Shown piece by piece: positions 7,686 to 62,642 of a stretch of DNA of 64,000 nt. The DNA is from Eledone cirrhosa (Eukaryota): contig OZ024759.1 of NCBI GenBank assembly GCA_964016885.1, positions 16,740,001-16,804,000 on the forward strand. The letters run 5' to 3'. The notes under the pieces were generated by a model. That model ran no database searches, was not told the DNA's origin, and was given only the letters and a program-made list of their open reading frames with translations. The translations under genes and the position numbers were made by a program. Each line of letters opens with the position of its first letter. Positions within the stretch are counted from its first letter, which is position 1.

Positions 7686-7750
<65 letters not shown>

Positions 7751-28495: not shown

Positions 28496-28532
<37 letters not shown>

Positions 28533-31500
28533 ATATAATATTAAATAAAAGCTAAACTCGCTTTCTTCAGTTCAGCATTCATGCCAACCCTTACCTATGG
28601 TCATGAATCTTGGGTAATGACCAAAAGAATATGATTGCGAATACAAGTGGCCGAAGTGGGATTCCTCCAAAGGGTCTTTGGAGTAATGTTACTCGATGAA
28701 CTGCTTGGATCGGAGATCAGAGAGTCACTCCAGGTAGAGCTGCTACTTCTCCGAATTGAGAGATCACAGCTCCGATACTATGGACATGTGGTTAGAATGT
28801 CTCAGGAAAGAATCGTTGGACAGATTTTATGGGCAAAACCAACTGGTAGGAGACCCAGGGGTAGACCCACTCCGAGCAAGATGGTTGGATAACGTCCACG
28901 AGCTTGGCTGGTCACTCTTGGGGATCCAACCAGATCAATTGGAGACGGTTGCTTCTGACAAGACTTGCTGGAAAGAGAGTTTGAGGACTCTTTCCCCCAT
29001 AAGCCTCTCAGGAATAAGTGGGTGAAGAAGAAAAAGAATATTAAATACAGTGAAGGCCAATATTCTGTAATGCTCCAGCTTGTACTCTTTGTACATGTCG
29101 TAGAATGCTTCATTTTATCTGCATCACTGCTGACCGACTAGAATGTGGATTGCACAACCCTGGCTGGTTAGCTCTCTATTCAAATGATATACAGTGTACC
29201 CTCAGCATTCGCGGTCCTGGTTATTTGCAGAAATTTCCTTAGAACCTAACTAATAATTGTTCATGGAAACTTCCGCGATTTTTTAATGGCTTTCGTCATG
29301 GCAATATATATATTTTTAATGCTAAATTATTAATAATACCGTATTTGCCGGCCTATCGGATGACCCTTCGTATAAGACGCTGTTTTTATTCTATTTTACG
29401 TTATATTTTGATGTTTATAGGCATTTTTATGGACCGCGTCCAATATTCGCAGTTTTTTCACTAACTCAAGTACTCTAGGAATATAACCCCCTTGAATACC
29501 AGGGGACAACTGTATATATGTATATATTTGATATATATTTATCCTTATTGAGCCCTCTTTGGATTTTAGTCTTCAAATTTATTATTATTACTATAATATA
29601 TATATATATATAATCTATCTTTCTATTCCGCAGGATGAAGGTTCTCACTTTGAAGCTAAATTCCTGTCATATGATGCTGTTATACCAAAGTATTATTGCA
29701 AACAAGAACTTAAATTAAATTCAGTGGTATAGTAACATATTTATTTATAATGTTTTTGTTTAATATTTAAAAAAAAAAATTTAAGCCGTTTTGCAATTTC
29801 AACATTTTCATCACTGTTTAATGTCTATTTTCTTGCATGGGTTAGACAGGTTGTCATGTTTTGCGACAAGTCAGGTCAGGTGAGCATATCTTGTTCATAT
29901 GGATTTGTTTTTACCCTTGCTAACGAAGTGCTTTTGCATAATTTAAGGGCAGTGGATTGGCAGTATCAGTAGAGCATCAGACAAAATGTTTTGTGGCATT
30001 TATTTAAGACTTTCTACATTCTAAGTTTAAATCCCACCAAGGTTAACTTTGCCTTTCATCTTTCTGGGGTTGATAAAATACAGTACCAGTTATGTACTGA
30101 AGTTGATAAAATCAACTTTCTTCTTCCTCCGTATAATCTATATTTCCATACTGAAGGAATGCTCTGTTCTTCTGTCTGCCTTATTCTGGCAAAAAGCACC
30201 AAACACACACTGTAAATGTAGTTGGTGTTAGGAAGGGCAACCAGCCAGAAACAGTCCTATATGAGCAAGGCACGGTCACCTGACTCAACCTGTCTCGAAT
30301 GGGACAAACCTGTCTAACCCATGCTAGCATGGAAAATCGATGTTAAATGATGATATATATATAGATAGAGAGAGAGAGAGAGAGTGTGTGTGAAGATATT
30401 GATTGGATATATAGATAAACACAGTGTGTAGATGTTGACTGGATATATATATATATATATATATATCATCATCATCATCGTTTAACGTCCATATTCCACG
30501 CTTACATGGGTTTGGACGGGAGTTTTCCCACTTGAGACAAGAGTGGTTGTCTTGCTCGCATAGGACTGCCCGGCGGGTTTTCTATGGCTGGATGCCCTTC
30601 CTAACACCAACCACATTTACAGTGTGGAACTGGGAGGTTTTTACCGTGTTACCTACACGGCCACATTACAGCGTGGACTGTGTTTTTTTTTGTCGTGACA
30701 CCTACATGACCTCATTTGTTTCGGACTGGATGTTGTGGTACCAACATAACTTTACATTGAAAGGGGTGGTGTGGATGGGGTGGGGGTAGTGGGACGGGGG
30801 TGTATTTTGTTAGATGTGCCTATATATATATATATAGAGAGAGAGACAGAGAGATACAGTGTGGAGATGATGACTGGATGTATAGATAGATGCAAAAATT
30901 ATACTCTAAATGGCACTTAGAACATTTAAATATCAAAATATTGACATCATGAGACTTTCAAAGCCATACTACCTAAACAATGTGTTGATTAGCTGCCTCA
31001 GTTTGGATTTTTTGCCTATTTCTCGGACATAAAATAGGGGGTCAGTTTATATTCGAGTATATATGGTAAATCATTTTTTTTTTATTATTCATATTTGACA
31101 GGTACGAGCCACAGTCCTTCAACATCACCCCGAGACTAATATTATTACTCTGCATCTGAAAATGACCCCTGGCTGTGTGGAATCTGAGCTTTTCCCAGGT
31201 ATTTCAATTGGTGACATCATTGATGGTGTTGTGAAACACATCAATGTCAACAATGAGTTATATCTTCAACTCTCAAATGGATTTTGGGGTTTTGCATATG
31301 TGAGTTGGAATTTTTTTGTTATGTATTGTATAATGTAGAGTTTGTTATGAGTTTTCTTTTTAAGCCCCCCCCCCCCCCCCCCCCCCAAATTTCATCACAT
31401 CTGAGGGCAGGGTTAAATCCTTTGGAGGCCCTTAGTCTTTAATCTGATGACTGCCGCGTATATTTTACACAGTTGCAGTTGCTGTGTTGGTTTTTAAAAA

Positions 31501-34500
31501 AAATAAAATGACTATTTTGATTGACAAACGTCACATCAATAAACTAGTAACCCCATCTAGCTTTGAAGTTATGAACTGTTGGAAATGAGTTCACAACTTT
31601 GAAGTTATGAACTGTTGGAAACGAATTCACAACTTTGAAGTTATGAACTGTTGGAAACGAGTTCATAACTTTGAAGCTATGAACTGTTGGGAAGGAGTTC
31701 CAACATGTTAAGATGAGTTATTTCATCTACGGCACTGAAGAGGTTAAAAGATTAAGCCCCTTTCCCCCTCCATATATTTACTGAGGTATTTTGTAAAAGA
31801 TGTATTACTGTATTTTATTATGTAATATAGAGCATATACATATTATAGTCACCAGAACTAGGCTGTGATACTAGAAGATGTGTTGGTATATTAAATATAT
31901 ACATTATTAAATATATATTACTATATAATATATACAACATGTATATATTGTAGTCACCAGAACTAGGCTGTGATAATCATCAATGAATACATTTTACTGA
32001 GATATTTTATTTAAGGTGTATTATGTGTTATACTATAAAATATGCTGCATGTATAGTGGTAAGAACCTCTCAGGAGAAGGTCTTAGAAGAAGAACCCCAC
32101 CCTCAAGCAAGTGTTTCAGCCCTTAACTTCTTATATTATAGTCACAAGAACAAGGCTGTGACAACAATCAGTGGATACTGCAAGATGTGTTACTAGATTT
32201 AATATATACATTATTAAATATATATTACTGTATATATATATATTTATGTCTAAAGTCTGTCTGAAGCCTGGAGGCTCATCAGACCAGTATTTATTCCAGT
32301 TTCAGTGACATTAAACACCTACGAGTACAAGACTTACCCCTGAACAGGACGCCAGTCCATTGCAGGGTTAAACTCCCAGTTATTGCAGGTACTCATCTTC
32401 AGCTGAATATACTGGAGCAACATGAAATGAAGTGTTTTGTTCAAGAACACAACACACAACCCAGTCCAGGAATTGAACCCACAACTTTGTGGTCCAACAC
32501 TCTTACCATTAGGCCACGCTCTTCCATGTATAATATTTATATATTATAATCACCACAACAAAGCTGAGATAATCACTAGTTATACATTTTACTGAAGTTT
32601 TTGAACAATGTGTCTGAACAATTAAAACATAAGACATGAAAATGTGTGTAAGACTGTAAATCTATAATTTTATTAAAACAGGTTAATGACTTTGAAAATC
32701 AATCACATTAAATATAGTTTAATATCAGTAATCACCAATTAAAAGTCTGTGGATTGCATTTCTGATTGATATTTTTTTTCTTGTTTTCCAGTCTCCATAT
32801 GTCACTGAACATAAAAGACCTTCAGTAAAGGAAAAGTATTTTATTGATTCTAATCACAGGTTAATATTGTCTTATTTGATATTTCAGTTTATTTTTTCTC
32901 TTATTCATTCTCACCTCTAGCTTGTGTGTGTAGCATGACCAAATGGTAAAAAAGTTTGCTTCACAACCATAATGTCCCAGTGTTTTCTTAATTCGAATGA
33001 TTATAGTATCTTTACTAGGTGACAGTATTAGAGTAAAGACTTTAATATTTAATGTGATACAGTCAGTTATGTCAAAACTAAAGTTGAATATGTTTGGTTG
33101 TTATTAACTCTTAACACCCTGTAATGATTTAGCAGAAAATAACTAAATATAACTGTAACTGACTGCTCATACTTATGTTAAGGTAGTGTTCTCAAAATAA
33201 ATAATATTAAAATTTCATAGATTCAATATGTGAAATATTATGTGAGGTTAAGCCTTTACTGTGAAAATACAATAGTAAATATAAAGTAATATAAATGCTA
33301 AAGGGTTAATTCTTAACATCCTGTAATGATTCAGCAGAAAATAACTAAGGACAGGTTTGTTAATTTAAATGTTTATAGGATCTTTATTAGGTAACAAATC
33401 TTTGTGAACATTTACAGTATTAGAGAATAAAGACTTTGATATTCAATTCTTAACATCCTGTAATGATTTAGCAGAAAATATCTGAAAATGGATGCTATGT
33501 TTTTACAGCCAACCCTCTCCACTACTAATTATATTCCTATATTTTTGTTTTTATAAATTTTTCTCTTTTCTTTATTTAGATGCTGCGTGATGAGATTTTT
33601 GCCACTTGAAAACTTAATTGAAGTGAAGCTAAACTGGTTAGTACAGAGATAAAGATTAATTTAATATTTGATATTGTTATGGGTATAAGAGGGATAAGTT
33701 GTGGTGTGCAGGAGAGAGGGCTGAGATGGTATGGACATGTGATGCGCATGGAGGATGACCGATGGGTGAAGAAGTGCCAGGAAGTCCCAGTGGAGGGAAG
33801 ACGCAGTAGAGGTAGACCACGAAAAACATGGGCGGAGGTGGTGAGAGCGGGCCACAGATCGCTGAAGTTCATGGAGGAGATGACGAAGGACCGTGACAAG
33901 TGGAGAGATGCTGTGCTGAATAAGACCCGTCCCACCCTTGCAAGCAGGGAAAAGCGGACGTAAAATGATGATGATGATGCGAAGTTGGCATAAAGGTGCC
34001 ACTACAATAACACCCAGTCTACCCTGTAAGGTGGGTGTGTTGGTATCACAACAACAATGCCCAGTCCACCCTGTGAGGTGGTAGTACTGCTGTCAACAAT
34101 AACACCCAGTCCACTCTGTGAGGTAGTCATACTGGGGCTATAAGTGCTGCTGTCAACAATAACACCCAGTCTATCCCGTAAGGTGGTAGTGCTGGTACCA
34201 CAGCAAAACCAACCAGTCTATCCTGTAAGGTGGTAGTGCTGGTACCACAGCAAAACCAACCAGTCTATCCTGTAAGGTGGTAGTGTTGGTACCACAGCAA
34301 AACCAACCAGTCTACCCTGTAAGGTGGTAGTGTTGGTACCACAGCAAAACCAACCAGTCTATCCTGTAAGGTGGTAGTGCTGGTACCACAGCAAAACCAA
34401 CCAGTCTACCCTGTAAGGTGGTAGTGTTGGTACCACAGCAAAACCAACCAGTCTACCCTATAAGGTGGTAGTGTTGGTACCACAGCAAAACCAACCAGTC

Positions 34501-35361
34501 TATCCTGTAAGGTGGTAGTGCTGGTACCACAGCAAAACCAACCAGTCTACCCTGTAAGGTGGTAGTGTTGGTACCACAGCAAAACCAACCAGTCTACCCT
34601 GTAAGGTGGTAGTGCTGCCACAACAATAACACCCAGTCTACCCTGTAAGGTGGTAGTGCTGGTACCACAGCAAAACCAACCAGTCTATCCTGTAAGGTGG
34701 TAGTGCTGGTACCACAGCAAAACCAACCAGTCTACCCTGTAAGGTGGTAGTGTTGGTACCACAGCAAAACCAACCAGTCTACCCTGTAAGGTGGTAGTGT
34801 TGGTACCACAGCAAAACCAACCAGTCTACCCTGTAAGGTGGTAGTGCTGGTACCACAACAAAACCAACCAGTCTACCCTGTAAGGTGGTAGTGCTGGTAC
34901 CACAGCAAAACCAACCAGTCTATCCTGTAAGGTGGTAGTGCTGGTACCACAGCAATACCAACCAGTCTACCCTGTAAGGTGGTAGTGCTGGTACCACAGC
35001 AAAACCAACCAGTCTACCCTGTAAGGTGGTAGTGCTGGTACCACAACAAAACCAACCAGTCTACCCTGTAAGGTGGTAGTGTTGGTACCACAACAAAACC
35101 AACCAGTCTACCCTGTAAGGTGGTAGTGCTGGTACCACAACAAAACCAACCAGTCTACCCTGTAAGGTGGTATTGCTGCCACGTGGTAGTGCTGGTACCA
35201 CAACAAAAATACCCAGACTATCCTGGGGCTACAGCAAAACTACCCATTCTATCCAGTAAGCTGTATGATGCTTGTGCATGAAGTGCAATGTTAATAAATG
35301 TGAAAGGCAAAGTTTAGTAAACTAATTTAATTGTTGGAAAATCAAGGGCGACCATAATCAT

Positions 35362-35394
<33 letters not shown>

Positions 35395-38300
35395 ATCTCT
35401 GTTTTCCAAGCTGGCATGAGTTCAATGATTGGTTACTCTCTGAGACAAGACTTGGTCGGACAACTACATCTCACTCAGATGATCAATATTTTGGCATGAT
35501 TTTTATAGCTGGATGGTTCTTCTACTGATAACCTCTTTACAGAGTGTACTGGGTGTATTTCATCCTGGCATCAACACTAATGAGTGAGGTTGCCATGTCC
35601 TTGATACAGCTGGAGAGTTCCCTCTACCCTTTTGGCATGTTTTCTACAGTTGGGTGTCACTCTTAATACCAATTACTTTACAGAGTGTCATCATCACCGT
35701 TTTACGTCTGTTCTTCCACGCTAGCATGGGTTAGACAGGTTGTCCTGTTGTGGGCAGTGTCCGGTTGGCTGACCTTGTCTTGCTCATACGGGAACTAATT
35801 CTGGCTTGATTTCTACAGCTGGATGCCCTTCCTAACATCAACCTCATTTACAGTGAGTGCGGGGAGCTTTTTTTCCGTGGCGCCTACACGTCCACTGTAC
35901 AGTGTGAGCTGGGTGCTTTTTTTTTTTTCTTTTGCCGTGGCACCTCCACAACCACTTTGCAGTGGAATGACAGGGACCCCAGTCCTATCATCTCATTTCT
36001 ACAGCTGAGTAAACTGGAGCAATGTGAAATAAAGTGTCTTGCTCAAGGAAACAACACATCACCCGGTCCGAGGATTGAACTCACAACCTTTCGATTGCAA
36101 GGCCAATGCTCTAATCACTAAGCCATGCACCTTCATGTATTGGGTGCATTTTAGTACTATGGATCCAGCTGTAGAAACCACACTCCCAATACATGTTGTA
36201 ATGTAGTTGGCATTAAGAAGAGTATCCAGCTGTAGAAACCATGTTTCCAATACACTCTGTAAAGTGGTTGGCATTAAGAAGGACATCTAGCTGTGGAATA
36301 ATGTAAACAAGAAGTCTATTAGACCATAGTACTGTTGGTATTATGGTGGTGAATTGACAAAGTTGTCAGGGCATTGGATTAGAAATTCCTCAGTGTTTAT
36401 TCAGGCTCACTGTGTTCTGAGTTCAAATCCTGCCAAAGTCAACTACTGGGATCGGTTCTTCTTCTTTCTCTTTTGTTTTCTCTCTCTGTCTCACCTGGAA
36501 AGGTGATGGTCTCCACTAGGTTTAAAATGTCACTACGGCTCCCCTCCAACTCCATCAGGAGTGAAGGGTCCTTGTGGTAATTTATGCAGGCTCTTTAACC
36601 CTTTAACATTACTCTATATATACTATTGTATTTTCATGGTAAAGGCTTTATCTCACATAATATCGAATCTATGAGATTTTGATATTTTTTATTTTGAGAA
36701 GAATACCATAACATCAGTATGAGCAGCCGGTTACGGCCGGTTTGAATAGGAAGAGGTGAGAGAATTATGGCTGGTTTGAATGCTAAAGGTCAACTTTACC
36801 TTTCATCCTTCTGAGATTGGTAAAATAAAGTACCATTTACCTACTGGAGTTGATATAATTACTGTATACTCTCAAATATAAGCTGACCCCACTATTTTTT
36901 GTCTGAGAAATGAGCAAAGATCCAAAATTTATTTCCATAGAATTTGAAGTTGGGGAAAACAATTGTCAAAATATTGACCCTGAATATATACAAGTCCCCT
37001 TCTGCCATTGGTTTATTTTGGTCACATATTCCTTAGCTTGAGTCATCATCATCATCGATTAACGTCAATCTTCCATGCTAGCATGTGTTAAACTGGTTTG
37101 TCCCATTTAGAAGCAAGTTGGGTCAGGTGACTGTTTTTCGCTCATATAGGAGTGTTTCTGGCTGGTTTTCTACGGCTGGATGCCCTTCCTAACGCCAATC
37201 ACATTGACAGTGTGTGCTGGGTGCTTTTTGCTGTGTCTTTTACATGATCACTTTACAGTGTAGGCTGGATGTTATATACATATATACACACATGGTCTAT
37301 ATATACATATTTGTGTATATACGCACATATCATCACCTCCGTCTTTAAGTCCATTTTCCACACTAGTATGGGTTAGACGGGATTGTCCTGTTTTGGGCAA
37401 TCCTAGGTCAGATGACCATATGGAAATTTTCAAATTGCTGTCCTTTGGCTTAAATTAGAATCCATTATTTGACTCAATGTGTTCTTTTCTATCTTTTAAC
37501 ATAGGAAACCAAAGAGTTTTGAAAATTTGCAAGAGAAGGATATTGTCTCTGGTGATGTCTTGAAGGTATGTGGAAGCTGTTTTATATTTTCCCCTCTACT
37601 TTCTATCTTTCTTTCGGTGTTGAAAAGTATGTGCTTAATGCTAAACTCATCAAATCTTTTATTAATTCTTATTGTCATGTACCACATGAAGTATCCTTAG
37701 CAAAACATTCTTGAAAATTACAAAACAGAACTCTGACTCCATTACATATAAAATTAAAGTCTTTGCTCTAATATTATAAAATTTTTAAAAGATCTGTCCA
37801 GATATTATAAACATTTGAATAAATAAACCACATTAGCAAGATATTCTTGAGCATTACAAAACAGCGCTATGACTGCATCACATCTAAAATTAAAGTCTGC
37901 ACTAATACTATAAATTTTTACAAAAGTCTGTCCACAAGTAAAGATACTATAAACATTTGAATTAACAAACCACATGAAACTAAATTAGCAAGACATTCTT
38001 GAAACTATTAAACAGTACTATAACTGCATCACATTAAGAATTATATAGTATTTGTTCTAATAAGTAAATATTATAGGATGTTAAGAATTGCAGGGTCTAC
38101 CAATTATTCTGTACAAGTTTATTGGAAAAGATTGCATCACAAAATCCTTATTGGAAGACTGGTTCAAATTAAATTTTTTAACCTTTTTTGTATCACATTT
38201 TTCATGAAAGACACCAACTATGATTTCCGAATAATTTTGAAGATATCCCAAAATGGAGGTTGTCATGTCTTTCATGGTAGGTTTCCTATGATTAGATGCC

Positions 38301-41300
38301 CTTCCTATCACCAACTACATTACATATCTTCAGTACAGTTGAATGGTCCTCATGACTCCTTGTTTGGCAGGTTTCCAATGATTAGGTGCCCTTCCTATTA
38401 TCAACCACATTACACAGTTGAAGGGTCTTCTATGGTTGGATGCCCTTCCTATCACCAACCACTTTAATGTCCTCCATACAACCGGATAGTCCTCCCAACT
38501 CTCCAGTATGTTATTCAAGTAGCTAATAGTAATCTTATTGATTTGTTGCAGACAAAAACGGCAGAAATACAGAAAAAGGAAAAGAAAAAAAAGGCTGATA
38601 AAATCAAGCTTGAAATGGAAAAGGTGAGTTTTAATATTACATCTTTAATATATCCCCATACCTATTGTCATCATCAATATTGTTTAATGTCTTCCATACT
38701 TACATAGGTTAGACAGGTTGTCATGTTCTGGGACTAGACTAAAGAGGTGAACATATCTAGATCATACGTTTCATTTTTGGCTTGGTTTCTACAGTTGGAT
38801 GTCCTTCTTAACACCAACCACTTTACAACATGTACTGGGAGCTTGGTTTCTACAGCTGGATGTCCTTCTTAACACCAACCACTTTACAACATGTAGAGGG
38901 AGCTTGGTTTCTACAGTTGGATGTCCTTCTTAACACCAACCATTTTACAACATGTAGAGGGAGCTTGGTTTCTACAGTTGGATGTCCTTCTTAACACCAA
39001 CCACTTTACAACATGTAGAGGGAGCTTGGTTTCTACAGTTGGATGTCCTTCTTAACACCAACCACTTTACAACATGTACTGGAAGCTTGGTTTCTACAGT
39101 TGGATGTCCTTCTTAACACCAACCACTTTACAACATGTACTGGAAGCTTGGTTTCTACAGCTTGATGACTTTAATACCAATCACTTTACAACATGTACTG
39201 GAATCATGGTTTCTACGGTTAAATATCCTTAATACCAACCACTTTACAGCATGTACAGGGAGCATGGTTCCTATGACTGGATGTCCTCCTTAACACCAAC
39301 CACTTTACAATATGTACTGGAACCATGGTTCCTACAGTTGGATGTTCTTAACACCAACCACTTTACAGCATGTACTGGGAGCTTGGTTTCTACAGATGGA
39401 TGTCCTTCCTAACACCAACTACTTTACAACATGTACTGGAACCGTGGTTTCTACAGCTGGATTTCCTTCCTAACACCACCCAATTTACAGAGTGTACTGG
39501 GAGCATGGTTTCTACAGCTGGATGTTCTTAATACCACCCACTTTACAGTGTACTGAGAGCATGGTTTCTATGGTTGGATGCCTTTCCTATCATCAACCTC
39601 TTTACAGAGTGTACTGGGTGTATTTATCTTGTAGATCTCCAACACTGGAGGTTGTCATGTCGTCAACACAGCAGAAAAGTCTTCTCAAATCTGTGTTTGA
39701 TAGGTTTCCTCTAGCTTGATGTCCTTCCTTTCACCAACCACATTACATGTCCTCGACATAGCTAAAGTTTCTTCCTGGCCCTGTGTTTACCAGGTTTTCT
39801 ATTGGATGTCCTTCTTATCACCAACCACATTACACATCCTTGACACAGCTTAATAGTCCTCCCAACTCTCCAGTATGTTATTCAAGTGGCTAATAGTAAT
39901 CTTATTGATTTGTTGCAGACAAAAACAGCAGAAATACGGAAAAAGGAAAAGAAAAGAAATGCTGATGAAATTAAGCTTGAAAGGGAAAAGGTGAATTTTA
40001 GTATTACATCTTTAATATATCCCCATACCTATTGTCATCATCAATATTGTTTAATGTCTTCCATACTTACATAGGTTAGACAGGTTGTCATGTTCTGGGA
40101 CTAGACTAAAGAGGTGAACATATCTAGATCATGCGTTTCATTTTTGGCTTGGTTTCTACAGTTGGATGTCCTTCTTAACACCAACCACTTTACAACATGT
40201 AGAGGGAGCTTGGTTTCTACAGCTGGATATCCTTCTTAACACCAACCACTTTACAGCATGTACAGGGAGCTTGGTTTCTACAGATGGATGTCCTTCTTAA
40301 CACCAACCACTTTACAACATGTACTGGAAGCTTGGTTTCTACAGATGGATGTCCTTCTTAACACCAACCACTTTACATGTACTGGAATCATGGTTTCTAC
40401 AGTTAAATATCCTTAATACCACCCACTTTACAGTGTACTGGGAGCATGGTTTCTATGGATGGATGCCATTCCTATCACCAACCTCTTTACAGAGTGTACT
40501 GGGTGTATTTATCTTGTAGATCTCCAACACTGGAGGTTGTCATGTCTTCAACACAGCAGAAAAGTCTTCTCAAATCTGTGTTTGATAGGTTTTCTATTGG
40601 ATGTCCTTCCTATCACCAACCACATTACATGTCCTCGACATAGCTAAAGTTTCTTCCTGGCCCTGTGTTTACCAGGTTTTCTATTGGATGTCCTTCCTAT
40701 CACCAACCACATTACACGTCCTTGACACAGCTTCAAGTGGCTAATAGTAATCTTATTGATTTGTTGCAGACAAAAACAGCAGAAATACGGAAAAAGGAAA
40801 AGAAAAGAAATGCTGATGAAATTAAGCTTGAAAGGGAAAAGGTGAGTTTTAGTATTACATCTTTAATATATCCCCATACCTATTGTCATCATCAACATTG
40901 TTTAATGTCTTCCATACTTACATAGGTTAGACAGGTTGTCATGTTCTGGGACTAGACTAAAGAGGTGAACATATCTAGATCATACGTTTCATTTTTGGCT
41001 TGGTTTCTACAGATGGATGTCCTTCTTAACATCAACCACTTTACAGCATGTACAGGGAGCTTGGTTTCTACAGTTGGATGTCCTTCTTAACACCAACCAC
41101 TTTACAGCATGTACAGGGAGCTTGGTTTCTACAGTTGGATATCCTTAATACCACCCACTTTACAGCATGTACAAGGAGCATGATTTCTATTGCTGGATGC
41201 CATTCCCATCACCAACCTCTTTACAGAGTATACTGGGTGTATTTATCTTGTAGATCTCCAACACTGGAGGTTGTCATGTCTTCACCACAGCAGAAAAGTC

Positions 41301-44300
41301 TTCTCAAATCTGACCAACCACATTACATGTCCTCGACACAGCTTAACCCTTTAGCATTTACATTACTCTATATTTTCATGGTAAAGGCTTTACTGCACAT
41401 AATATCGAATCTATGAGATTTTTATATTATTTATTTTGAGAACAATACCTTAACATCAATATGGGTATCTCATTACAGCTGGTTTGAACAGGAAGCGGTG
41501 AGGGAATTCTGGCCAGATTCAGCCGGTTTAAATGCTAAAGTGTTAAGAGTCTTCCCAACTCTGCAGTATGTTATTCAAGTAGCTAATAATAATCTTATTG
41601 GTTTGTTTCAGACAAAATCTCCAGAAATGCGAGAAAAAGGAAAGAAAATAAGAAATGCTGATATTGCTAAGATTGAAATGGAAGAGGTGAGTCTTAGTGT
41701 TAGATCTTTAACATATCCACATACCTATCATAATCATCACCATAGGGTAATCTTGTTCTACTACTATTACCACCACTACTAAACTACTACTCTTAATACA
41801 ACTATTACTACTCTGAGGGTGTATGGCTTAGTGGTTAAAGCATTGGACTTACAATCATGAGATTGTGAGTTCAGAGCATTGGACTTACAATCATGAGGTT
41901 GTGAGTTCAGAGCATTGGACTTACAATCATGAGGTTGTGAGTTCAGAGCATTGGACTTACAATCATGAGGTTGTGAGTTCGATTCTCGGACCGCGCTTTA
42001 CATTACGTTCCTGAGCAAGACACTTTATTTCACGTTGGCATGCCAACACAAGAGCAAGAATTTTGGGGTCATTCTACTTTAAAGTTGGCTTTAAAGAGGC
42101 TGTTTGCATAATTGCAAACAAATCAAATATTATTATTAATATTCGAAAAACACAGATTACATTTATTGTATTCAGCCATGGAGAGCGATAAACTGTTTGT
42201 TTGTTATATATATATCTATATATATAAAGTTGTAGTTCCTGTCTGTTTGTTCACGAACTGTTCCTATGGTTTTGGAGATAGACCCCCCATAACCATATAT
42301 ATTCTGAAACTACATTGCCCAGTGTACCTGGATAAGTATGTTTCATTTTAATGAAAAGGTTCCCGGGAGCACAAACCCCCGCTGAAAATTTTTTTCCTTC
42401 GATTTATATGAAATTTAAACCACAGGTAAATGACAAGATATGATGCCTGTTCGCGAGGGTTAAACCCCCTATAGTGAAAGTTTGGGAAGCCTATAACTTG
42501 AGTATCGGAACCTTTATTATCACAGGGTTTTTCTATTAATTAAATGTAAATCAACAAAAAAAAAGCACCTTTCTTTTATAGAAATATTTGGATAATTTAG
42601 ACATTTTATTTATGGCAAAACATCATTAGAATTACGACAAGAAAAATTATTAGTTAATGCCTCTACTTTTTTAACATTTTTCCTTTATTTTTTCTCCATA
42701 AATTATATCACTGATTTAAAATCAATCATCATTTTCTTACAAAAAAAATGTGTGAAACGCAGCAAGGCGCGGGTAATTTGGCTAGTATATATATATATAT
42801 ATATATATATGTTGTCACGTCACTGCTGACAAACTGTATCAGCCATTGCCTTTCCCTTGGACATCATCGGTGGTATGGAGATGGGAGGCAGACTGGTATA
42901 CATGGGCGACTGCTGGTCTTCCACAAACAACCTTGTGCCTCGGAGAGGAACTTTCTAAGTGCAAATCCCATGGTCATCCTTGACCAAAGGGGGTCTTTAA
43001 CCTTACCACCCCCACTACTAAACTACTGCTATTAATACAATTACTAAGAGAGTGTTGAGTCATAGGGTAATCTTGTTTACTACTACTGCTACCACCAGCA
43101 CCATTGCTATCACTACTGCTACCGGCACTACCACCACCTCTACTACCAATAATAATACTACTACTACCACCACTGCTATCGCTACTGCTACCAGCACCAC
43201 CACCACCACCAATAATACTACTACTACCACCACTGCTATCACTACTGCTACCAACACCACTACCAATAATACTACTACTGCTACCACTACTGCTACCAGC
43301 ACTACCACCACCACCACTACCAATAATACTACTACTACCACCACTACTGCTACCAGCACCACCACCACCACCAATAATACTACTACTACTACCACCACTG
43401 CTACCACTACTGCTACCATCACTGCTACTACCACCACCACCACCACTACTAAACTACTACTTCTACTGTTACTGGTTTTGATCTGTTACAGGCTGAAAAA
43501 TCAAACAATGTGATAAAAAAGAAATTGGCAAAGACCCCAAAGACCAAGAAACTGATTGAAATTGGGACGGTGAGTGTTGCTGTTCTGTACCTCATTACCA
43601 TCTTTATACGTCTGTCCTGCTAGCATAGGTTGGCCGGGTTGTCGCAGACCAAGGGACATCTTAATTAGGGCTACTGACCTCTCAGATTGGACCAGGGGCT
43701 TGCATCTCATTTGCATATGTTCCCACACTCTATCAAGTTCATGCTTTCCAGTATAGTTACGTCCTTTTACGATCTGAGTTCAAATCCCGCCGAGGTTGAC
43801 TTTACCTTTCATCCTTACGGGGTCGATAAAATAAAAGTACCAGTAATGTACTGGGTAATTGCTGGCCTTGTGCCTAAAGTAGAAACAATTATTATGGGGA
43901 AGTGGATTGGCAGTATCGGTAGAGTGTCGGACGCCATGCTTTGTAGCATAGAGTTGTGGCCATTTACGTTATGAGTTCAAATCCCGTCGAGGTTAACTTT
44001 GCCTTTCATCCTTACGTGGTCGATAAAATAAGTACCAGTAATCCACTGGGGTAATTGCTGGCCTTGTGCCAAAAGTAGAAACAATTATTATGGAACTCTA
44101 TGCTGCAAAACGTGGTGTGTCTGACAGTTGAGCATCAGACACCATGCTTTACAGCATAGAGTTACGGCCCTTTACATTCTGATGTTTAAATCCCACCGAA
44201 GTTAACTTTGCCTTTAAGCTTTACGGGGTTGATTTCATCAACTTTCCCTTCTCCCAGAAACCATTGTTATTTATTTTTTTCCTTCTCAACAGATTTCTCA

Positions 44301-47300
44301 TGGCATCATTCTAAAGAAACTAGACAAGAACTTCAAAATATGTTTGATGCCCTCAGGAGTAACAGCTCTTCTACCCAAGATACATTTGTCAGATTTTGAA
44401 GAGCTTTCTGAGATATTTTGGAGTATTTTCCATGTAGGTGACACGCTGGATGTTGTGAATTTTAAACACTTGGAAAAGTTAAATGTATCCTTTAGAAGAT
44501 TAATGAGAAGAGATAACTGGTTGAAGTTTCTCTGATGTTTATATTGTAAACTTATTCTGTTGATAATTTACTGTGGCACCAGTACTGCCGTTTTACAGAG
44601 TGTACTGGGTGTATTTTATCATGGTATCATCACTACCACTTTACAGAGTGTACTGAGTGTATTTCATCATGGCGACAGCACTACCACTTTACAGTGTGTA
44701 CTGGGTGCATTTTATCATGGCTACAGCTCTACCACTTTATAAAGTGTACTGGATGTATTTTATCATGGCTCCAGTACTACCACTTTACAGAGTATACTGG
44801 GTGTATTTTATCATGGCTCCAGCACTACCACTTTACAGTGTGTACTGGATGCATTTTATCATGGCATCATCACTACCACTTTACAGAGTGTAGTGAGTGC
44901 ATTTTCTTCTGACACCAGCACTATTACTTTACAGAGTGTAGTGGGTGCATTTTCTTGTTGGACCAGCACTACCACTTAATAGTGTACTGGGTGCATTTTT
45001 ATCATGGTGCCGGTACTACCACTTTACAGAATGTACTGAGTGCACATTTTCTTGTGATCTAGACTACCTCTTTACAGTGTACTGAGTGTATTTGATAATG
45101 GCACCAGTAATTAATGTCTTTTTCCTCTTATTGTAAAATAATGTCCTATCTCTAATACTTAACATCCTGTAATGATTAGTAGAAAATATCTATTTAATGT
45201 TTAATTCAAATATTTATGGTACCTTTACTAGTGGATTGCTTTTTGTAAAAATTTGCTTTAAACTAAAGTAAAAAAAAATCTATTTTAGTGCTGTTTTATA
45301 CTATACTTTACAAGAATGTTTAACTAATGGGGCTTCATGTGGTACAGGGCATTAAGATATTAATTTTTAATGTGATGCAGTCATAGTTCTGTTTTTTACA
45401 TTTCAAGAATGTCTTGCTAATGTGGTTTCATACAGGACATTAAGAGTTAAATAAGTTTGATTTATGGTTAATTTTTGAAATATTTCTCCTTAAGCCTTTC
45501 TAAAGATATGTAGTCGTAAACGCAGTCAAATATTGGCAGCAGAAAGCGAAAAGTTTCTACATACATTCAGTGATATTCATGTAAGTTATTGACGTTTTTT
45601 TCTAATTTTTAACTCTTTTCATTTGTTCTTTTTATCGTCATCATCATCATCATCATCATCATTAACGTCTGTTTTCCCTGCTAGCATGGGTTTGGTGGGT
45701 TGACACAGACAAAGCCAGTACTTAATTGGTACCCCTCTCTCTGATGGGCTGGGAACCATCACCTTTACATATGTTCTCACACTCTACAGAGTAAGAAATG
45801 CTGTGCAATCATGGCACCAGCTTTAGGGAGGTTGTTTGGTAAATTTTCTATGGCTGGATGTCTTATCACCAACCACTTTACAGAGTGTCCTGGGTGAATT
45901 TTATTGTATTGTGTCCCCCAACATTATATTTACCTGATACAAACCTCTCCCAAGTTCTACAATACAGTGTGTATTGAGACCATGGTTTCTATAGCTGGAT
46001 GTTCTTCCTAACACCAACTACATGACCACTTTACAGAGCAGATGGGGTGTTTTTATCGTGGTACCAACACAACCACTTCACAGGGTGAACTGGGATTTTT
46101 TTTTATTGTGGCATCAACACTACCACCTTACAGGGTGGACTGGATGTTTTTTATCATGGCACCAGCACTGTCACTTTACAGGATTCCTGGGTGTGTTTTA
46201 TTGTGGCACCAACATTACCACTTCACAAGGTGGGCTGAATGGTTTTTATCATGGCATCAACACTACCACTTCATAGGGTGGGCTGGATGTTTTTTATCAC
46301 GGCACTAACACTACTACCACTTCACAGGGTAGACTGGGTGTGTTTTATTGTGGCACCAACACCAACACTACCACTTCACAGGGTGGGCTGGGTGGTTTTT
46401 ATCATAGCATCAACACTACCACTTCACAGGGTAGACTGGGTGTGTTTTGTTGTGGCACCAACACTACCACTTCACAGGGTGGGCTGGGTGTGTTTTATTG
46501 TGGCTCCAGCCCTACCACTTTACAGGGTGGATTGGATGGTTTTTGTTTATCATAGCTCTAGCCCTACCTCATTACAATCCTAGGTTGTTCATTATGCGCT
46601 CAGCCAGACTGGTGGAAAGCAGTGATATGAATGGCAGGCTAAAAATATATTTCATATTGTTGCAATGTGTTTTATTATTTCAGGTTGGTCAAATTCTGTC
46701 AGGGATTGTGAAAACAGTTGTCGATTATGGAATATTTGTAGAATTTCCTGGAGGTTTGAGGAGTTTGGCTGTCACTAAGGTAAGATGGTATCAACAGTCA
46801 TTTTTATTTAACATCTGCTTTTAATCATCATCATCATCATCATCAAAAGGGCGATGGATTGGCAGTATCGGTAGAGGGTCGGGTGCCATGCTTTGCGACA
46901 TAGCGTTACAGTCCTTTATGATCTGAGTTCAAATCCAACGGAGGTTAACTTTGCCTTTCATCCTTACGGGGTCGATAAAATAAAGCACCAGTAACGTACT
47001 GGAGGTTGATTTAATCGACTTTCCTCTCCCCCAAAATTACTGGCCTTGTGCCTTTACTAGAAATCGTTATTATTCTTTGCCTACTTATTCCTTAGAGGGT
47101 CGTGGGGGCAGAGTCTTCAAACACTCCTGCCAGTGGGTCCTGTCAGAAGACACCATCTCCAAATAATCCAGCTGGATCCCCAAGCGTGATCAGCCAAGAG
47201 AGATTGTTCCAATTACAGAGGGATCTCCTTGTTAAGCCTCCCAGGTGAAGTCTATGCTAAGTTTCTGGCAAACAGATGTAGGGAGATTGTCGAGTCGAAA

Positions 47301-50300
47301 CTGATGAACAGAGTGGTTTTAATATTTACATATTTACATAATATTTACATGTTTATTATTCATCTTAACCTTTTAGCATTTAAACCGGCCATATCCAGCC
47401 AGAATTCTCTCACCCCCTTTCTGTTCAAACTGGTTGTAACCGGTTGCTCATACCAATGTTAAGGTATTGTTCTTAAAATAAATAATGACATCATCAAAAG
47501 TTTGTAGATTCGATAATATGTGAGATAGTTATATGAGATAAAGCCTTTACCGGGGAAAATACAATAGTAAATATAGAGTAATGTAAATGCTAAAGGATTA
47601 ACCCTTAAGCATTTGCATTACTCTATATTTACTATTGTATTTTCGCAGTAAAAGCTTTACCTCAGATGATATCGAATCTATGGGATTTTGATATTATTTA
47701 TTTTGAGAACAATACTTTAACATCACTATGAGTGGCCGGTTTGAACAGAAAGAGGTGAGAGAATTCTGGCCAGTTTAAATGCTAAAGGGTTAAATAACAT
47801 TTCTTTTGGTTTCAAAGTAACAGAGTTTATGTATATCCATTTTCAGGATATAACAACAGAACTAGACACAAACTTACACAAATATTTTAAAAAAGGCATG
47901 ACGGTCTCCACACAAGTCTGCCAAGTCAGTAAAAAGAAGCATCAGTTTAGAGTCAGCTTGAAACCCAAGAAAACCAACATTGATCCTAGTTTTTGTCTAA
48001 ATTACTTTCAACTTTACTTTGAGGAGAAAAGAATCATTACAGAACTTTTAAGATCCAAGAAAGGTAAGTGTAGATTTGAAATTAATATTTTTTGTTTGTG
48101 TTTTGTCTTTACTCTTTTACTGGCTTCACACATTAACCCTTTAGCATTTAAACTGGTCATATCTGGCCAGAATTCCCTCACCCTATGGCTGCTTCTGTTG
48201 TTGTGACATCAGCACTATCCTCCTCCAGGGTGTACACATAATACATACACTATATATATGTTGTCCAAGGGAAAAGCAAGGACCGATACAGCTTGGCACC
48301 AGTGTCATGCCAACTCATATACATTATATATACACTGTATATGATGTCCAAGGGAAAAGCAAGGACCGATACAGCTTGGCACCAGTGTCATGCCAACTCA
48401 TATACATTATATATACACTGTATATGATGTCCAAGGGAAAAGCAAGGACCGATACAGCTTGGCACCAGTGTCAGGCCAACTCATATACATTATATATACA
48501 CTGTACATGTTGTCCAAGGGAAAAGCAAGGACTGATACAGCTTGGCACCAGTGTCATGCCAACTCATATACATTATATATACACTGTACATGTTGTCCAA
48601 GGGAAAAGCAAGGACCGATACAGCTTGGCACCAGTGTCATGCCAACTCATATACATTATATATCCCTTTAGTATTTAAACAGGCCACTCATACTTCTGTT
48701 AATGTATTTTTCTTAAAATAAATGATATCAAAATCTCATAAATTCGATATTATGTGAGATAATTATTTGATGTAAATCCTTTACCACAAAGGTATAATAG
48801 TATATATAGACTTATGTAAATGCTAAAGGGTTAAAACACTGCCTGTGATTTTCAAATTTTTTTTAAAGTCAAGAATTTGGTGTGATTTAGTAATATAATT
48901 AACTTTCTCATTATTAGATTGGTGTTTGGAGCACAACACAACAGAGGTTCTTACATAAAATTATTTAGATAAATATAAACACTTTAACACTTTCATATTT
49001 CTAATGAATGACAATGCCTATGATTTTCATATATATTTTTTCTTTAATCAAGAATTTGAAAGGATTTAGTAATACAACTTTTCCCATTATTAAGTTGGTG
49101 TTTGGAGCATAAAATAACAAAGGTTCTTACATAGAATCATGATTTTTGTCAGGGCACCAGCATACCACCTTAAAGGGTGGACTGGGTGCTTTTTGAATGA
49201 CACCAGTATAACCACTTTACTGGATGAACTGAATGCTTCTTTGTCATGGCACCAGCACTATCATCTTACTTGGTGGACTGGGTGCTTTGTGTCATGATAC
49301 CAGCACTACCACCTTACAAGGTGGACTGGGTGTTTTTTGTCATGGAACCAACACTACCATCTTACAGAATGGACTAGTTGCTTTTTATCACAGCACCAGC
49401 ACTACTGCCTTACAGAGTGGACTGGTTGCTTTTTATCATAGCACCAGCACTACTGCCTTACAAAGTGGACTGGGTGCATATTATCATAGAACCAAAGCTA
49501 CCACTTTACAGGGTGTACTGGGTGTATTTTCTCATAGCACCAACATTAACACCTTACAGAGTGGAATGGGTGCATTTTCTCGTAGTACCAGCACTACCAC
49601 TTTACAAGGTGTACTGGGTGTATTTTCTCATAGCACCAGCACTGCTACTTTACAGGGTGTACTGGGTGCTATTTGTCAGGGCTCATCTGATATTTTTTTG
49701 TGTGTTTTTCTTCTCTTACTAGATTTTTTGTGGATGTTTGGAGATTTGCAGGTTGGAGACTTATGTTGTGTGACTGTCACCAAAGTTTTTGAAGCAGGGA
49801 TAAATTGTGATTTGAAGTCTGGTACTAAAGGTTTCATTGCCATAAACCATACAAAAGGTAGGCTTAAAGCATGGTTTCATAGAACCATTGTTAGTTTTGT
49901 TTTATATGTGAAGCTCATACTTCATTATCATCATTGCTGTTTTATGTCCATTTTTCTATGCTTGCATGGATTACCTGGGTCTTTTTTACCATAGCATGGC
50001 ATCCCTCCACATGTAGAGGTCCTCTGTGGGCTTCAGTGATTTGGGATCAGCTCTCACAACCTCTGCCTGGGTGTTTCTTGGCATACCTCCACATGTAGCA
50101 TTCCTTTGTCATCTCCTCTCTGATTTAAGGTCAGCTCTTATAATCTCTCCCCGGGTCTTTCTTGGCATACCTCCACATGTAGCATTCCTTTGTCATCTCC
50201 TCTCTGATTTAAGGTCAGCTCTTATAATCTCTCCCCGGGTCTTTCTTGGCATACCTCCACATGAAGCATTCCTTTGTCATCTCCTCTCTGATTTAAGGTC

Positions 50301-53300
50301 AGCTCTTATAATCTCTCCCCGGGTCTTTCTTGGCATACCTCCACATGAAGCATTCCTTTGTTATCTCCTCTCTGATTTAAGATCAGCTGCCAGCATCTGT
50401 GTGTCTGTCTGTCCACCAGTATATGTCTATGTGTCTGTCTGTCTGTCCACCAGTATATGTCTATGTGTCTGTCTGTCTGTCCACCAGTATCTCTGTTGTC
50501 TGTCTGTCTGTCTGTCCACCAGTATCTCAGTGTCTGTGAGTCTATTTGTCTGTCTATCTGTCTACCATATATCATTCTGTTTACATCAATTATATTTTAT
50601 ACAAATAAAACAGTTTTCTCTGTGGTTTACCTTTCTGTCTAGGCCTCACTATAAAGGAGGATCAACAAATTGAAGGGGTTATATTGAATATTGGTCACTT
50701 GTATGGAATTGTGCAGCTGGTTGCATCTACCACTGTTGTGAAAAGGGTGAAGAAGACGAAGAAAAACTCAGTGGAGGTGCAGTAAATGTTTTTACTTTTT
50801 TTTTTATTGTTGAGGGTGGTGGGCACTTTAGAGGTTTTAGCAGTCCCCAACCACTACTGGTCCCAGTCCTCCATCATATGCTGAAATGTTGCAGTGTTGT
50901 GACCTATTGAGTCCCTAATGTTGTCAGACCAGCTCTGGCCCTTAGTAATCACCTCTGGTCCCAGTCCTCCATCATATGCTGAAATGTTGCAGTGTTGTGA
51001 CCTATTGAGTCCCTAATGTTGTCAGACCAGCTCTGGCCCTTAGTAATCACCTCTGGTCCCAGTCCTCCATCATATGCTGAAATGTTGCAGTGTTGTGACC
51101 TATTGAGTCCCTAATGTTGTCAGACCAGCTCTGGCCCTTAGTAATCACCTCTGGTCCCAGTCCTCCATCATATGCTGAAATGTTGCAGTGTTGTGACCTA
51201 TTGAGTCCCTAATGTTGTCAGACCAGCTCTGGCCCTTAGTAATCACCTTTGATCCCAGTCTTCCATCATATGCTGAAATGTTGCAGTGTTGTGACCTATT
51301 GAGTCCCTAATGTTGTCAGACCAGCTCTGGCCCTTAGTAATCACCTCTGATCCCAGTCCTCCATCATATGCTGAAATGTTGCAGTGTTGTGACCTCTTGA
51401 GTCCCTAATGTTGTCAGACCAGCTCTGGCCCTTAGTAATCACCTCTGGTCCCAGTCTTCCATCATATGCTGAAATGTTGCAGTGTTGTGACCTATTGAGT
51501 CCCTAATGTTGTCAGACCAGCTCTGGCCCTTAGTAATCACCTTTGATCCCAGTCCTCCATCATATGCTGAAATGTTGCAGTGTTGTGACCTATTGAGTCC
51601 CTAATGTTGTCAGACCAGCTCTGGCCCTTAGTAATCACCTCTGGTCCCAGTCTTCCATCATATGCTGAAATGTTGCAGTGTTGTGACCTATTGAGTCCCT
51701 AATGTTGTCAGACCAGCTCTGGCCCTTAGTAATCACCTCTGGTCCCAGTCTTCCATCATATGCTGAAATGTTGCAGTGTTGTGACCTATTGAGTCCCTAA
51801 TATCAGACCAGCTCTGGCCCTTAGTAATCACCTTTGATCCCAGTCCTCCATCATATGCTGAAATGTTGCAGTGTTGTGACCTATTGAGTCCCTAATATCA
51901 GACCAGCTCTGGCCCTTAGTAATCACCTCTGGTCCCAGTCTTCCATCATATGCTGAAATGTTGCAGTGTTGTGACCTATTGAGTCCCTAATATCAGACCA
52001 GCTCTGGCCCTTAGTAATCACCTTTGATCCCAGTCCTCCATCATATGCTGAAATGTTGCAGTGTTGTGACCTATTGAGTCCCTAATATCAGACCAGCTCT
52101 GGCCCTTAGTAATCACCTCTGGTCCCAGTCTTCCATCATATGCTGAAATGTTGCAGTGTTGTGACCTATTGAGTCCCTAATATCAGACCAGCTCTAGCCC
52201 TTAGTAATCACCTCTGATCCCAGTCCTCCATCATATACAGAGAGGTTGCAATATCATGACCTGTTGAGTCCCTAATGTTGTCAGACCAGCTAAAAATAAT
52301 GTTGAATATGTGTGGTTATTAATTAACACCCTGTAATGATTTAACAGAAAATAACTAAAAATAGGTTTGTTAATTCAAATGTTTATAGTATTTTACTAGT
52401 GGACAGATCTTTGTGAAAACTTTCAGTATTTCACTCAAAGACTTTAATTTATTAATGTGATAGGCCTCAGGCATACTTGGACCATGTACTATCAAGCTTC
52501 ACCATGAGGTGGGGTGGCTGTTGCAGCGAGTGTTACTGGCCATTGTCTGCAGGAATGCTTTTTGTGTCTTGTCTGTGCAGTCCCATTACCACCGCGCCCT
52601 AGGCCCAGAACCCAATCACCCTCATATTCCATTTCCGTTTTTTTTTAAATATTTTCTTATTTTACATTCCATTCTTTCTTCTCTTTCTATAAAATTGTGT
52701 TTACATGTTTATTTCTATTCAAAGAAGTCCTGTCATATGCAAATTTTGTCAAAAAAATTATGTTTTGTATTTTTCATATTTTGCTAATGTAGTTTCATCT
52801 GGTTTGTTAATTCAATATTTATAGTATCATTACTAGTGTGCAGATCGTTGTAAACATTTACAATATTAAAATAAAGTCTTCAATTTTTAATGTGATGCAG
52901 TCATGATGTTGTTTTGTATTTTTCAAAAATGTCTTGCAAATATGATTCCATGTGGTACAAGTTGTTAAGAGATAATTTTTGAAATTATCTTTTTTTAGAT
53001 CCCAAAGAATACAAATATCAGAGCAGTTGTGATGTTGGTTCAAAGGGAATTTATTGTGGTTCTTTTAAGGGTGAAAAGAAAATCAAGATTAGCTTATCTT
53101 TCTCCTAAAATGGTAATGTGTTTTTATTAAATATTTATTTATTTTACCATTTTGTATTCTAACTGATGAAAAATGAAATATTTTATATGTGAAAACTGAA
53201 GAGAGGCACTCATTTCATAAAAGTGTCTTCATTACTATATTTCTCATAAAAGACACTGTGTGATTTTTAAATAATTTTGAAAATAATCAAGAATTTGGTT

Positions 53301-56300
53301 TAGTAATGTCACAAGCTTTCCCATTATCAAGCTGATGTTTGGAGCATAACTTAAAGGTTCTTACATATAATTTTCATAGAACGTTTCTCATAAACGTAAA
53401 CACTTTAAAATGAACAGTTTTGAATTATAAATGAATGATTTCAGGCAGTTTGGTATCAAAAAGGTTCTGTTAATATTTGGAGCATAATCTAAAGGTTCTT
53501 TCATAAAATCATCATTGATGGTTTTCATGTAAATATAACTCTTAACATCCTGTGATGATTTAGTAAAAAAGTTCTAAAAACAGGTTTGTTAATTCAAATG
53601 TTTATAGTATCTTTACTGGCAGACAGATTGTAAAGACTTGAATTTTTAATGTGATACAGTCATAGTGTTGTTTTGTACTTTTCAAGAATGTCTTGCAAAT
53701 GCAGTTTTATGTGGTACAAGACTTTATGAGATAACATTTTAAAACTTTATGAGATAACATTTAAAAGTTTTGTATCATAAACGAGGATTTGTTTTATGTG
53801 GTGTAGTATCCAAAGGATTAATGTTTGGAGCATAACCTAAGGTTCTTACATAAAATTTTCAGGGAAAGTGTTTTAGGTAAACACTTTAACCATTTAGCAT
53901 TTACTATATATACTATTATATTTTCATAGTAAACATAATATCGAATCTATGAGATTTTGATATTATTTATTTTGAGAACAATGCTTTAACATTAGTATGA
54001 GTGGCCGGTTTGAACAGGAAGAGGTGAGATAATTCTGACTGGATACGGCGAGATAATTCTGACTTAAATACTAAAGGGTTAAAACAAAATGTTTTGTATT
54101 ATAAATCAAGGGTAGTTTGTTATCTAAAGGATTAAATTAATGTTTGGAGCATGACCTAAGTTTCTTACATAAAGTTATCAAGGAAGGTTTTTAGATAAAC
54201 GCTTTAAAATAAAGTGTTTTGTATCATAAACCAGGGCTGGTTTCAGGGGGTTTGGTATTCAGAGGGTTTAAATTAATGTTTGGAATCGCAATATAAAGGT
54301 TCTTGAAATTAGTTAAGGCGCAAGGCTTAGTTGTTAGAGAATTGGATTCGCAATTGTAAGGTTGCAAGTTCGATTCTCAGACCAGGCAATGTGTTGACTT
54401 TGAGCAAAACACTTTATTTCACGTTGCTCCTTCTGCCAGGAGTTGCAACCGATAGATAGTATCAGCAATGGAAAGACCATTGAAAACATTTCCTTGGTCT
54501 GATTTAACCCTTCAGCATTTATGTTACTCTATATTTACTATTGTATTTTAATGGTAAACCGTTTATTTCACATAATATCGAATCTATGAGATTTTGATAT
54601 TTATTTTGAGAACACTAGCTTAATGTCAGTATGAGCAGCCGGTTACAGCCTGTTTGAACAGAAAGAGGTGAAAGAATTCTGGCCAGATATGGTGGGTTTA
54701 AATGCTAGAGGCTTAATGAGGTCCATCGCAGTTGGTAAGCAATTGATGTCTGGGATCTTGTCAATTGACATCTTTTTATGTGAAATTATAATGGAAGGTT
54801 TTCAGATAAATATAAACACTTAATAACAGACAGTCTTGTGTCATAAAACAGGGGTTATTTCAGACAGTTTGGTATCCAAAGGGTTAGGAAATAAGTGTTG
54901 GTTCATTTGAATATGAATACACTCCTTTTCCAACCAATATCTTACCTGGTTTATTGTTTTCATTTCAGCACATCAATGATGCCATTGGTTGGCATCGATA
55001 CAATGTTGATGACAAAATAACAGTGAGGTTTGTTGAGTAAGTAAGAAATATTTTATATTCTATTGTCTGCTGGTGCCATGATAAAATGCATCTTGTACAC
55101 TCTGTAAAGTGGCAGTGCTGGTGTCATGAGAAAATGCACTCTGTAAAGTGATAGTGTTTGTGCATTGGTGCCATAATAAAATACACCCAGTACACTCTGT
55201 AAAGTGGCAGAGCTGGTGCCTCATATACCCAGTACACTCTGTAAAGTGATAGTGCTGGTGTTATGATAAAATGCACCGAGTACGCTCTATAAAGTGGTGG
55301 TGCTGGTATCATGATAAAATGCACCAAGTACACTCTGTAAAGTGATAGTGTTGGTGCCATGATAAAATACACCCAGTACACTCTGTAATGTGGTAGTGCT
55401 GGTGTCATAATAAAATTCACCCAGTACACTCCATAAAGAGGTAGTGTCGGTCCCACGATAAAATACGCCCAGTACATTCTGTAATGGTAGTGTTGGTGTC
55501 ACAATAAAATTCACCTAACATACTTTGTAAAGTTGGTGACAATAAGTACACTCTGTAAAGTGCTGGTGCCATAATGAAATACACCCAGTACACTCTGTCA
55601 GGTGCTAGTGCTGTTGATGCAATGAGAAAGTAAACCTTGTACATGCCATATTGGTTGGCATAAGGAAGGGCATCCAGACATAGAAACCATGCCAAAATGG
55701 AACGTATTTGAACGACACAGGCATCTGGCCTGCTTGTCTATCCTCAGAACATGACAATCAATTTAACCCATGCAAGAATAGAAAAGATATAAAGTGGTGG
55801 TGGTGATGATGATGATGGTTAAGTCTGGTTAGCGTAGATTTTTTCCTGCCACAAGTCACACATGAAGCAATGTTAAAATGATGATTTAAGGATTCAGTTC
55901 CTAGACCAGATGGTGTGTTGTATTTTTGAACAAAATACTTTATTTCATATGTAGGAGACACGGTAAAAAGGCTCCCAGTCCACACTGTAAATGTGGTTGA
56001 TGTTAGGAAGGGCATCCAGCCGTAGAAAACCTGCCAGATACAGTCCTATATGAGCGAGACACGGTCACCTGATCAATCTTGCCTCGAGTGGGACAATTCC
56101 CATCTAACCCATGGAAGATAGACGTTAAACGAGGATGATCCTTCATCCAGGAATTATGACAGATAGTATCAGCAATGGAAAAACCAATGGAAACTTCATT
56201 TCCTTGGTCAGATCTGATGATCAACTCTTTTCCATTCTGCCAGGAATTGCAACTAAGAGATAGTATTAGGTCCAATTCCTTGGTCCAATCTGACAGTTGG

Positions 56301-58937: not shown

Positions 58938-59000
<63 letters not shown>

Positions 59001-61943: not shown

Positions 61944-61981
<38 letters not shown>

Positions 61982-62611: not shown

Positions 62612-62642
<31 letters not shown>

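Follow-up and report, generated by a model that had tools for sequence, protein, structure and literature searches.

A tandem array of small charged exons lies where RRP5 of Eledone cirrhosa and other octopods lacks two S1 domains

We analysed a window of 64,000 nucleotides (nt) from the octopod Eledone cirrhosa (assembly GCA_964016885.1, contig OZ024759.1, positions 16,740,001 to 16,804,000 of the forward strand), which contains exons of the gene for RRP5 (PDCD11), an essential ribosome assembly factor that is needed for both ribosomal subunits (PMC6800521). Within this gene, four copies of a short exon encoding a charged peptide follow one another and, judged by alignment, are located exactly where two S1 domains are missing from the octopod protein. 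The interpretation that we favour, with somewhat better than even confidence, is that the copies are included in varying numbers and yield a charged spacer, predicted to be disordered, whose length can be adjusted. Exons are known to be duplicated in tandem; the novelty lies in the location, since a lineage-wide and fast-evolving array has taken the position of two RNA-binding domains that an essential assembly factor has lost, and also in the predicted isoforms of a relative, Octopus sinensis, in which different subsets of the array are used. A literature search, whose coverage excluded most subscription papers, found nothing on octopus RRP5, cephalopod PDCD11 or exon duplication of this kind in octopuses.

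The four array exons are encoded on the forward strand, i.e. copy 1 at 38552-38623 (72 nt, 24 amino acids (aa), 10 K/R and 5 D/E), copy 2 at 39919-39990 (72 nt, 24 aa, 10 K/R and 6 D/E, donor GTGAAT), copy 3 at 40770-40841 (72 nt) and copy 4 at 41612-41686 (75 nt, 25 aa). They are preceded by an exon at 37505..37565 (+, phase 2 to 0) and followed by a 78-nt linker exon at 43492..43569 (+, phase 0/0), which is orthologous to an Octopus exon at the same place. As stated in the initial annotation, all copies are in phase 0/0, with CAG before and GT after each exon, and are read in frame 0 without stops. Its claim of frame preservation is borne out by a join of modelled exons 1-18 that includes every array copy and results in 612 codons and no stop. 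The shared peptide of copies 2 and 3 reflects identity at 72/72 nt. Copy 1 differs from these two at 7/72 nt, leading to five amino-acid changes, and copy 4 differs from the other copies (copy 2/3 sequence) at 14-15/72 nt and has one extra codon; its length of 25 aa is the commoner unit length in Octopus.

The intron flanks were duplicated together with the exons, as had been described, and form the flank repeat families D6, D8 and D9. The exons start 1367, 851 and ~842 nt apart. In units 1-3, the exon is followed by ~155 nt of intron and a 61-bp minisatellite, and the unit ends in a tail similar to the sequence that precedes copy 1. The minisatellite is present in 14 copies in unit 1 (38780..39618, +), in 6 copies in unit 2 (40147..40503, +) and in 3.8 copies in unit 3 (40998..41226, +). 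With neighbouring exons that are homologous, have homologous flanks and share one phase, the array qualifies as a tandem exon duplication, and the copying of exons and flanks in the same phase within one gene resembles the tandemly duplicated, mutually exclusive exon arrays described in PMC9013439. A search of the E. cirrhosa assembly with the copy-1 unit yielded four candidates, all of which match and lie within the array. A Pfam search returned no family for copies 1 and 4 or for the two flanking exons.

The array is a real genomic feature. Short-read contigs from three runs of one sample were inspected, and depths of single contigs were used, summed depth not being copy number and the contig mapping of 30500-47000 being swamped by genome-wide repeats. 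The depths in the three runs are 6, 9.8 and 7.9 for the contig of copy 1, 12.5, 18.5 and 11.3 for one contig shared by copies 2 and 3, and 6.9, 12.9 and 7.6 for that of copy 4. The depth ratio of the shared piece is 1.65, compared to expected values of 1.70 for two copies and ~2.6 for three, so the depths fit 1+2+1 copies and agree with the annotated number. Read contigs contain both donor letters, because position 39995 is A in contig X1 and G in contigs X2 and X3. A false duplication could potentially account for the exon identity of copies 2 and 3 amid satellites, and the reads possibly stem from the same animal as the assembly. It is nevertheless very unlikely, with a probability close to nil, because all three runs give distinct contigs for copy 1, copies 2+3 (at about double depth) and copy 4, and because other species carry homologous arrays.

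Alignment with further cephalopod RRP5 proteins shows that the array is not private to E. cirrhosa but shared by Octopus; the Argonauta model contains no unit. The O. sinensis isoform X1 and the O. vulgaris model have three homologous units of 25, 24 and 25 aa at the same place, and in the O. bimaculoides models a single 25-aa unit is flanked by the same segments. Homology is indicated by comparing the three distinct window peptides with O. sinensis units 1-3, as 9/9 pairs reach a shuffle p ≤0.005; copy 4 and O. sinensis unit 1 are identical at 14/25 positions. Three isoforms are predicted for O. sinensis, X1 with units 1+2+3 (948 aa), X2 with units 1+2 (923 aa) and X3 with unit 3 only (899 aa), and the differences are whole units. 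RefSeq isoforms are usually based on RNA-seq junctions. These predictions lend indirect support to the subset splicing suggested in the initial annotation, which is thereby upheld in part.

In a tree of ten unit peptides (25 columns; copy 3 was omitted as identical to copy 2), the window copies are separated from the Octopus units with 81% ultrafast bootstrap, which is weakly suggestive of separate array expansions in the two lineages. Between O. sinensis and O. vulgaris, 6/74 array residues differ compared to 9/706 elsewhere (p=0.0015). Unit 3 is identical at 25/25 positions between O. bimaculoides and O. sinensis, at an overall identity of 89% (P0135 / P0289 / P0291), and it differs at 3/25 positions between O. 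sinensis and O. vulgaris, at an overall identity of 98%.

The missing domains were localized in an alignment of nine proteins, including the coleoid-like protein P0003 and gastropod, bivalve, brachiopod and mammal-like proteins. The linker between the flanking S1 landmarks comprises 245 aa in P0003, 79-145 aa in 6/6 octopod models from four species, and 76-173 aa in the E. cirrhosa window. The shortfall corresponds to two S1 domains, which are kept in 5/5 non-octopod rows (P0003, gastropod, bivalve, brachiopod and mammal-like). On this comparison, incirrate octopod RRP5 is without two S1 domains in all five octopods examined. The missing pair aligns to yeast Rrp5 residues ~500-680, which match S1-4 (to 594) and S1-5 (595-694) in the Table S2 numbering of PMC6800521. 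At the site of the array, folded S1 domains and not a repeat are present in the mammal-like and yeast proteins, in agreement with the initial annotation, according to which no such repeat is known in human or yeast RRP5.

A profile of the missing pair found nothing at 33637-44292 among 2449 window peptides, its eight best rows (E 0.13-2.3) all lying elsewhere; a control profile recovered the exon of the next retained S1 domain (44293..44484, +) at E 4e-13. P0003, searched against the species' own genome, gave 13 matches, every one of which lies at this locus while none covers residues 200-578, a search in which weak matches may be missed. In the alignment, the exon at 37505 lines up with the initial residues of the first lost S1 domain, of which it is, from this position, likely a remnant; it is not among the eight best matches of the lost-domain profile.

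The splice signals of the array copies are compatible with variable inclusion. Their acceptors have 12-13 pyrimidines in 20 nt, the fewest in the modelled gene, compared to at least 14 in 17 of the 19 other modelled exons, one of which probably has its acceptor misplaced. The weak acceptors and the O. sinensis models suggest that the copies would be used as cassette exons and not in a one-of-n fashion. Free cassette use would allow 12 different peptides, 0-97 aa long and with net charges from 0 to +14.

A choice of exactly one copy per transcript would be expected from the frequent association of tandem exon duplication with mutually exclusive splicing (PMC9013439), and single units are indeed found in O. 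sinensis X3 and in O. bimaculoides. The presence of two or three units in O. sinensis X1 and X2 and of three in O. vulgaris weighs against it, since the orthologous models show additive subsets. The units also differ from mutually exclusive arrays (PMC9013439) in encoding a low-complexity linker and not variants of a folded domain. With lengths of ~770-1300 nt, the introns do not block splicing sterically, and every donor belongs to the major type. Of 50 inverted repeats in 37566-43491, the 25 longest were inspected and show no recurrent docking/selector pairing. We therefore regard mutually exclusive splicing as highly improbable.

Constitutive inclusion of all four copies would produce a fixed-length, K/E-rich repeat linker of 97 aa, of which only the copy number evolves. 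The conserved acceptor flank is compatible with this, as is the presence of every unit in O. sinensis X1. Two further observations in its favour at the same time weaken the case for variable inclusion: the array donors are strong (8-9/9 matches), and the O. vulgaris model, which includes all three units, fits constitutive inclusion equally well. The O. sinensis isoforms, moreover, are database gene models whose read support is not visible. In contrast, the subsets in O. sinensis X2 and X3 and in both O. bimaculoides models, as well as array acceptors that are the weakest of the gene, are difficult to reconcile with fixed use of all copies, which we consider unlikely but worth keeping in view. 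The initial annotation had singled out copy 2 for a weaker donor. Only copy 2 has GTGAAT, yet with 8/9 matches to MAG/GTRAGT it equals copy 4 and is weaker than copies 1 and 3 only; 6/10 upstream exons match at seven or fewer positions.

The pattern of divergence bears on a third explanation, namely that satellite-driven duplications accumulate neutrally in a permissive linker, with one copy in use and the young copies mostly skipped or noisily spliced without regulation. Each unit contains a minisatellite, copies 2 and 3 are identical, the units evolve fast, and a break at this place is tolerated in yeast (PMC6800521). Freedom from stops is weak evidence for use of the copies, as 41% of neutral simulations stay stop-free. 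On the other hand, arrays persist in two lineages whose RRP5 proteins are only ~57% identical, copies 1 and 4 retain frame, AG/GT and a conserved acceptor flank at ~21% divergence, and one Octopus unit is fully identical between O. sinensis and O. bimaculoides. Copies 1 and 4 differ at five sites in the 62 nt that precede them, compared to 51/208 further upstream (p=0.004), as would be the case if both acceptors remained in use; gene conversion could also have produced this conserved flank. Copies 1 and 2 differ at 7/72 exon positions and at 4/217 flank positions (p=0.006), i.e. the exons change faster, and this would fit maintained splice signals combined with free or favoured amino-acid change. 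Taken on both sides, a neutral by-product appears unlikely, yet a merely tolerated linker is a rival to be taken seriously.

A spacer of adjustable length, which we prefer, would bridge the gap between the remaining S1 blocks. Yeast experiments show what the region can bear: loss of S1-5 results in severe slow growth and blocked cleavage at site A2, and Rrp5 split at residue 594 or 694 complements nearly fully (PMC6800521). In yeast, the domains therefore matter but their covalent link does not. The split result speaks for a spacer role as well as for mere tolerance, and it can be held against our interpretation, because a junction that tolerates a break may accept almost anything. The Argonauta model, with a 79-aa linker and no array unit, weighs in the same direction: the loss of the domains can therefore be borne without the units.

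The full array peptide of 97 aa contains 37 K/R and 23 D/E, with net charges of +5, +4, +4 and +1 for copies 1-4. The spacer could add a non-specific electrostatic contact with pre-rRNA, like the disordered, lysine-rich KKE/D tails of small nucleolar ribonucleoprotein (snoRNP) proteins, which are likewise K-rich with interspersed E and belong to early ribosome assembly (PMC11528048). Such a role is proposed by analogy only and no homology is claimed: the array differs from the KKE/D tails (PMC11528048) in being internal, exon-modular and lineage-variable, and the Octopus units are neutral, basic and acidic, not uniformly K-rich. The net charges of O. sinensis units 1-3 are 0, +3 and -6, so that isoform X2 is basic and X3 acidic. 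The acidic unit 3 fits poorly to a simple RNA-binding role and is a further point against our interpretation.

The helical conformation that had been proposed for the charged peptide is doubtful. The window peptides have a modest excess of ion pairs at i,i+3/4 spacing (43 favourable vs 28 unfavourable, p=0.016), and these units, which are richer in K/E than those of O. sinensis and contain almost no proline, may lean somewhat towards a helix. The O. sinensis linker shows no excess (14 vs 13) and contains five prolines. In an AlphaFold2 model of O. sinensis X1 based on a nine-row alignment, the S1 blocks are well folded, whereas residues 357-468 have predicted local distance difference test (pLDDT) values below 50, around 25, and contain no helix. 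A flexible charged spacer thus has better support than a rigid helix.

The array exon possibly originated from the downstream linker exon at 43492. The junctions of the two exons agree at 45 and 44 of 78 positions, whereas 17 control exons average 29 and reach at most 35-37. The similarity of the exon DNA is borderline (p 0.03-0.05), and the peptides give no similarity signal (p 0.36-0.77). We envisage that a short phase-0/0 linker exon, perhaps a copy of the 43492 exon, was duplicated in the S1 gap, and that unequal crossing-over, aided by the 61-bp minisatellite of each unit, could renew the array independently in each lineage. Such renewal would have led to four copies in E. cirrhosa and three in O. 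sinensis and O. vulgaris.

A break of 28S ribosomal RNA (rRNA) at H88 has been reported as incirrate-only (PMC13321053). It is conceivable that incirrates rewired early pre-rRNA processing, shedding S1 domains that are needed for A2 cleavage in yeast and putting in their place a splice-tunable charge module, with basic units in O. sinensis X2 and an acidic one in X3; this change and the break would then belong to one lineage-specific innovation of the ribosome, a scenario that we rate as quite improbable. The link is a match of lineages only, incirrates being the octopods sampled here, and the main text of the preprint does not mention RRP5, PDCD11 or biogenesis (PMC13321053). RRP5 is a concrete gene to test against the reported break. 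Octopods naturally lack domains whose deletion cripples yeast and could therefore show which S1 domains an animal needs. If inclusion of the array copies is regulated, splicing would here set both the length and the charge of a core assembly factor, which is rare.

The assignment of the host gene to RRP5 was upheld. Its exons within the window are at 22904..63234 (+), and the gene extends ~4 kb beyond the window end. From 22904 onward the exons have weak matches to the S1 and HAT families, the HAT exon retrieves RRP5 proteins (best Argonauta hians with 92% and Octopus sinensis with 90%), and RRP5 homologues tile the window collinearly, with one locus found in the genome. The modelled N-terminal part has 57-58% identity to Octopus RRP5 and 48% to Argonauta, which places the species at a fair distance from the Octopus species compared. 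A protein search with the 44293 exon gave no match among 35 candidates, which reflects a limit of sensitivity, as the Octopus orthologues were detected later. Tandem S1 domains are followed by C-terminal HAT/TPR repeats, collinear with yeast Rrp5 and its 12 S1 domains plus TPR (PMC6800521). The octopod proteins differ from it in lacking the S1-4/S1-5 pair, about four later S1 domains and ~80 N-terminal aa, so the canonical S1 count is not reached; orthology stands despite the missing domains because the arrangement is collinear and the locus single.

The loss of the late S1 domains (yeast ~867-1250) and of the N-terminal ~80 aa is shared by the octopods and P0003 and is, from the alignment, probably a coleoid-wide reduction. 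The late gap is at 55037-57582 in the window and at columns ~1110-1470 of the alignment designated A2. In yeast, S1 domains 10-12 bind internal transcribed spacer 1 (ITS1) and are required for A2 cleavage (PMC6800521). RRP5 of O. sinensis and O. bimaculoides is annotated as separate N-terminal and HAT pieces (P0002, P0004, P0133, P0135, P0289, P0292), and it is continuous in O. vulgaris (1260 aa), in Argonauta and at this locus; the split is likely an annotation or assembly split.

Several minor features were observed. A TTAA-flanked element with 19-nt terminal inverted repeats, resembling a miniature inverted-repeat transposable element (MITE), is present at 41342..41547 (no strand assigned) and ends ~65 nt upstream of copy 4. 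The 61-bp satellite also occurs in inverted orientation at 36163-36298, from where it could pair with the array introns across 2.5-4.8 kb; double-stranded RNA formed in this way close to the K-rich exons might be subject to A-to-I editing or back-splicing. As a selector this inverted copy was rejected, because it would also loop out the 61-nt exon 37505 and cause a frameshift. The intron at 44485-45505, following the 44293 exon, has the donor GTATCCTTT and a branch-like motif, TCCTTAAG, just upstream of the acceptor; it resembles a GT-AG intron of the U12 type (minor spliceosome). At ~3270-10210 (+), exon-sized open frames of the window presumably encode the seven-transmembrane (7TM) and coiled-coil end of a GABA-B receptor subunit.

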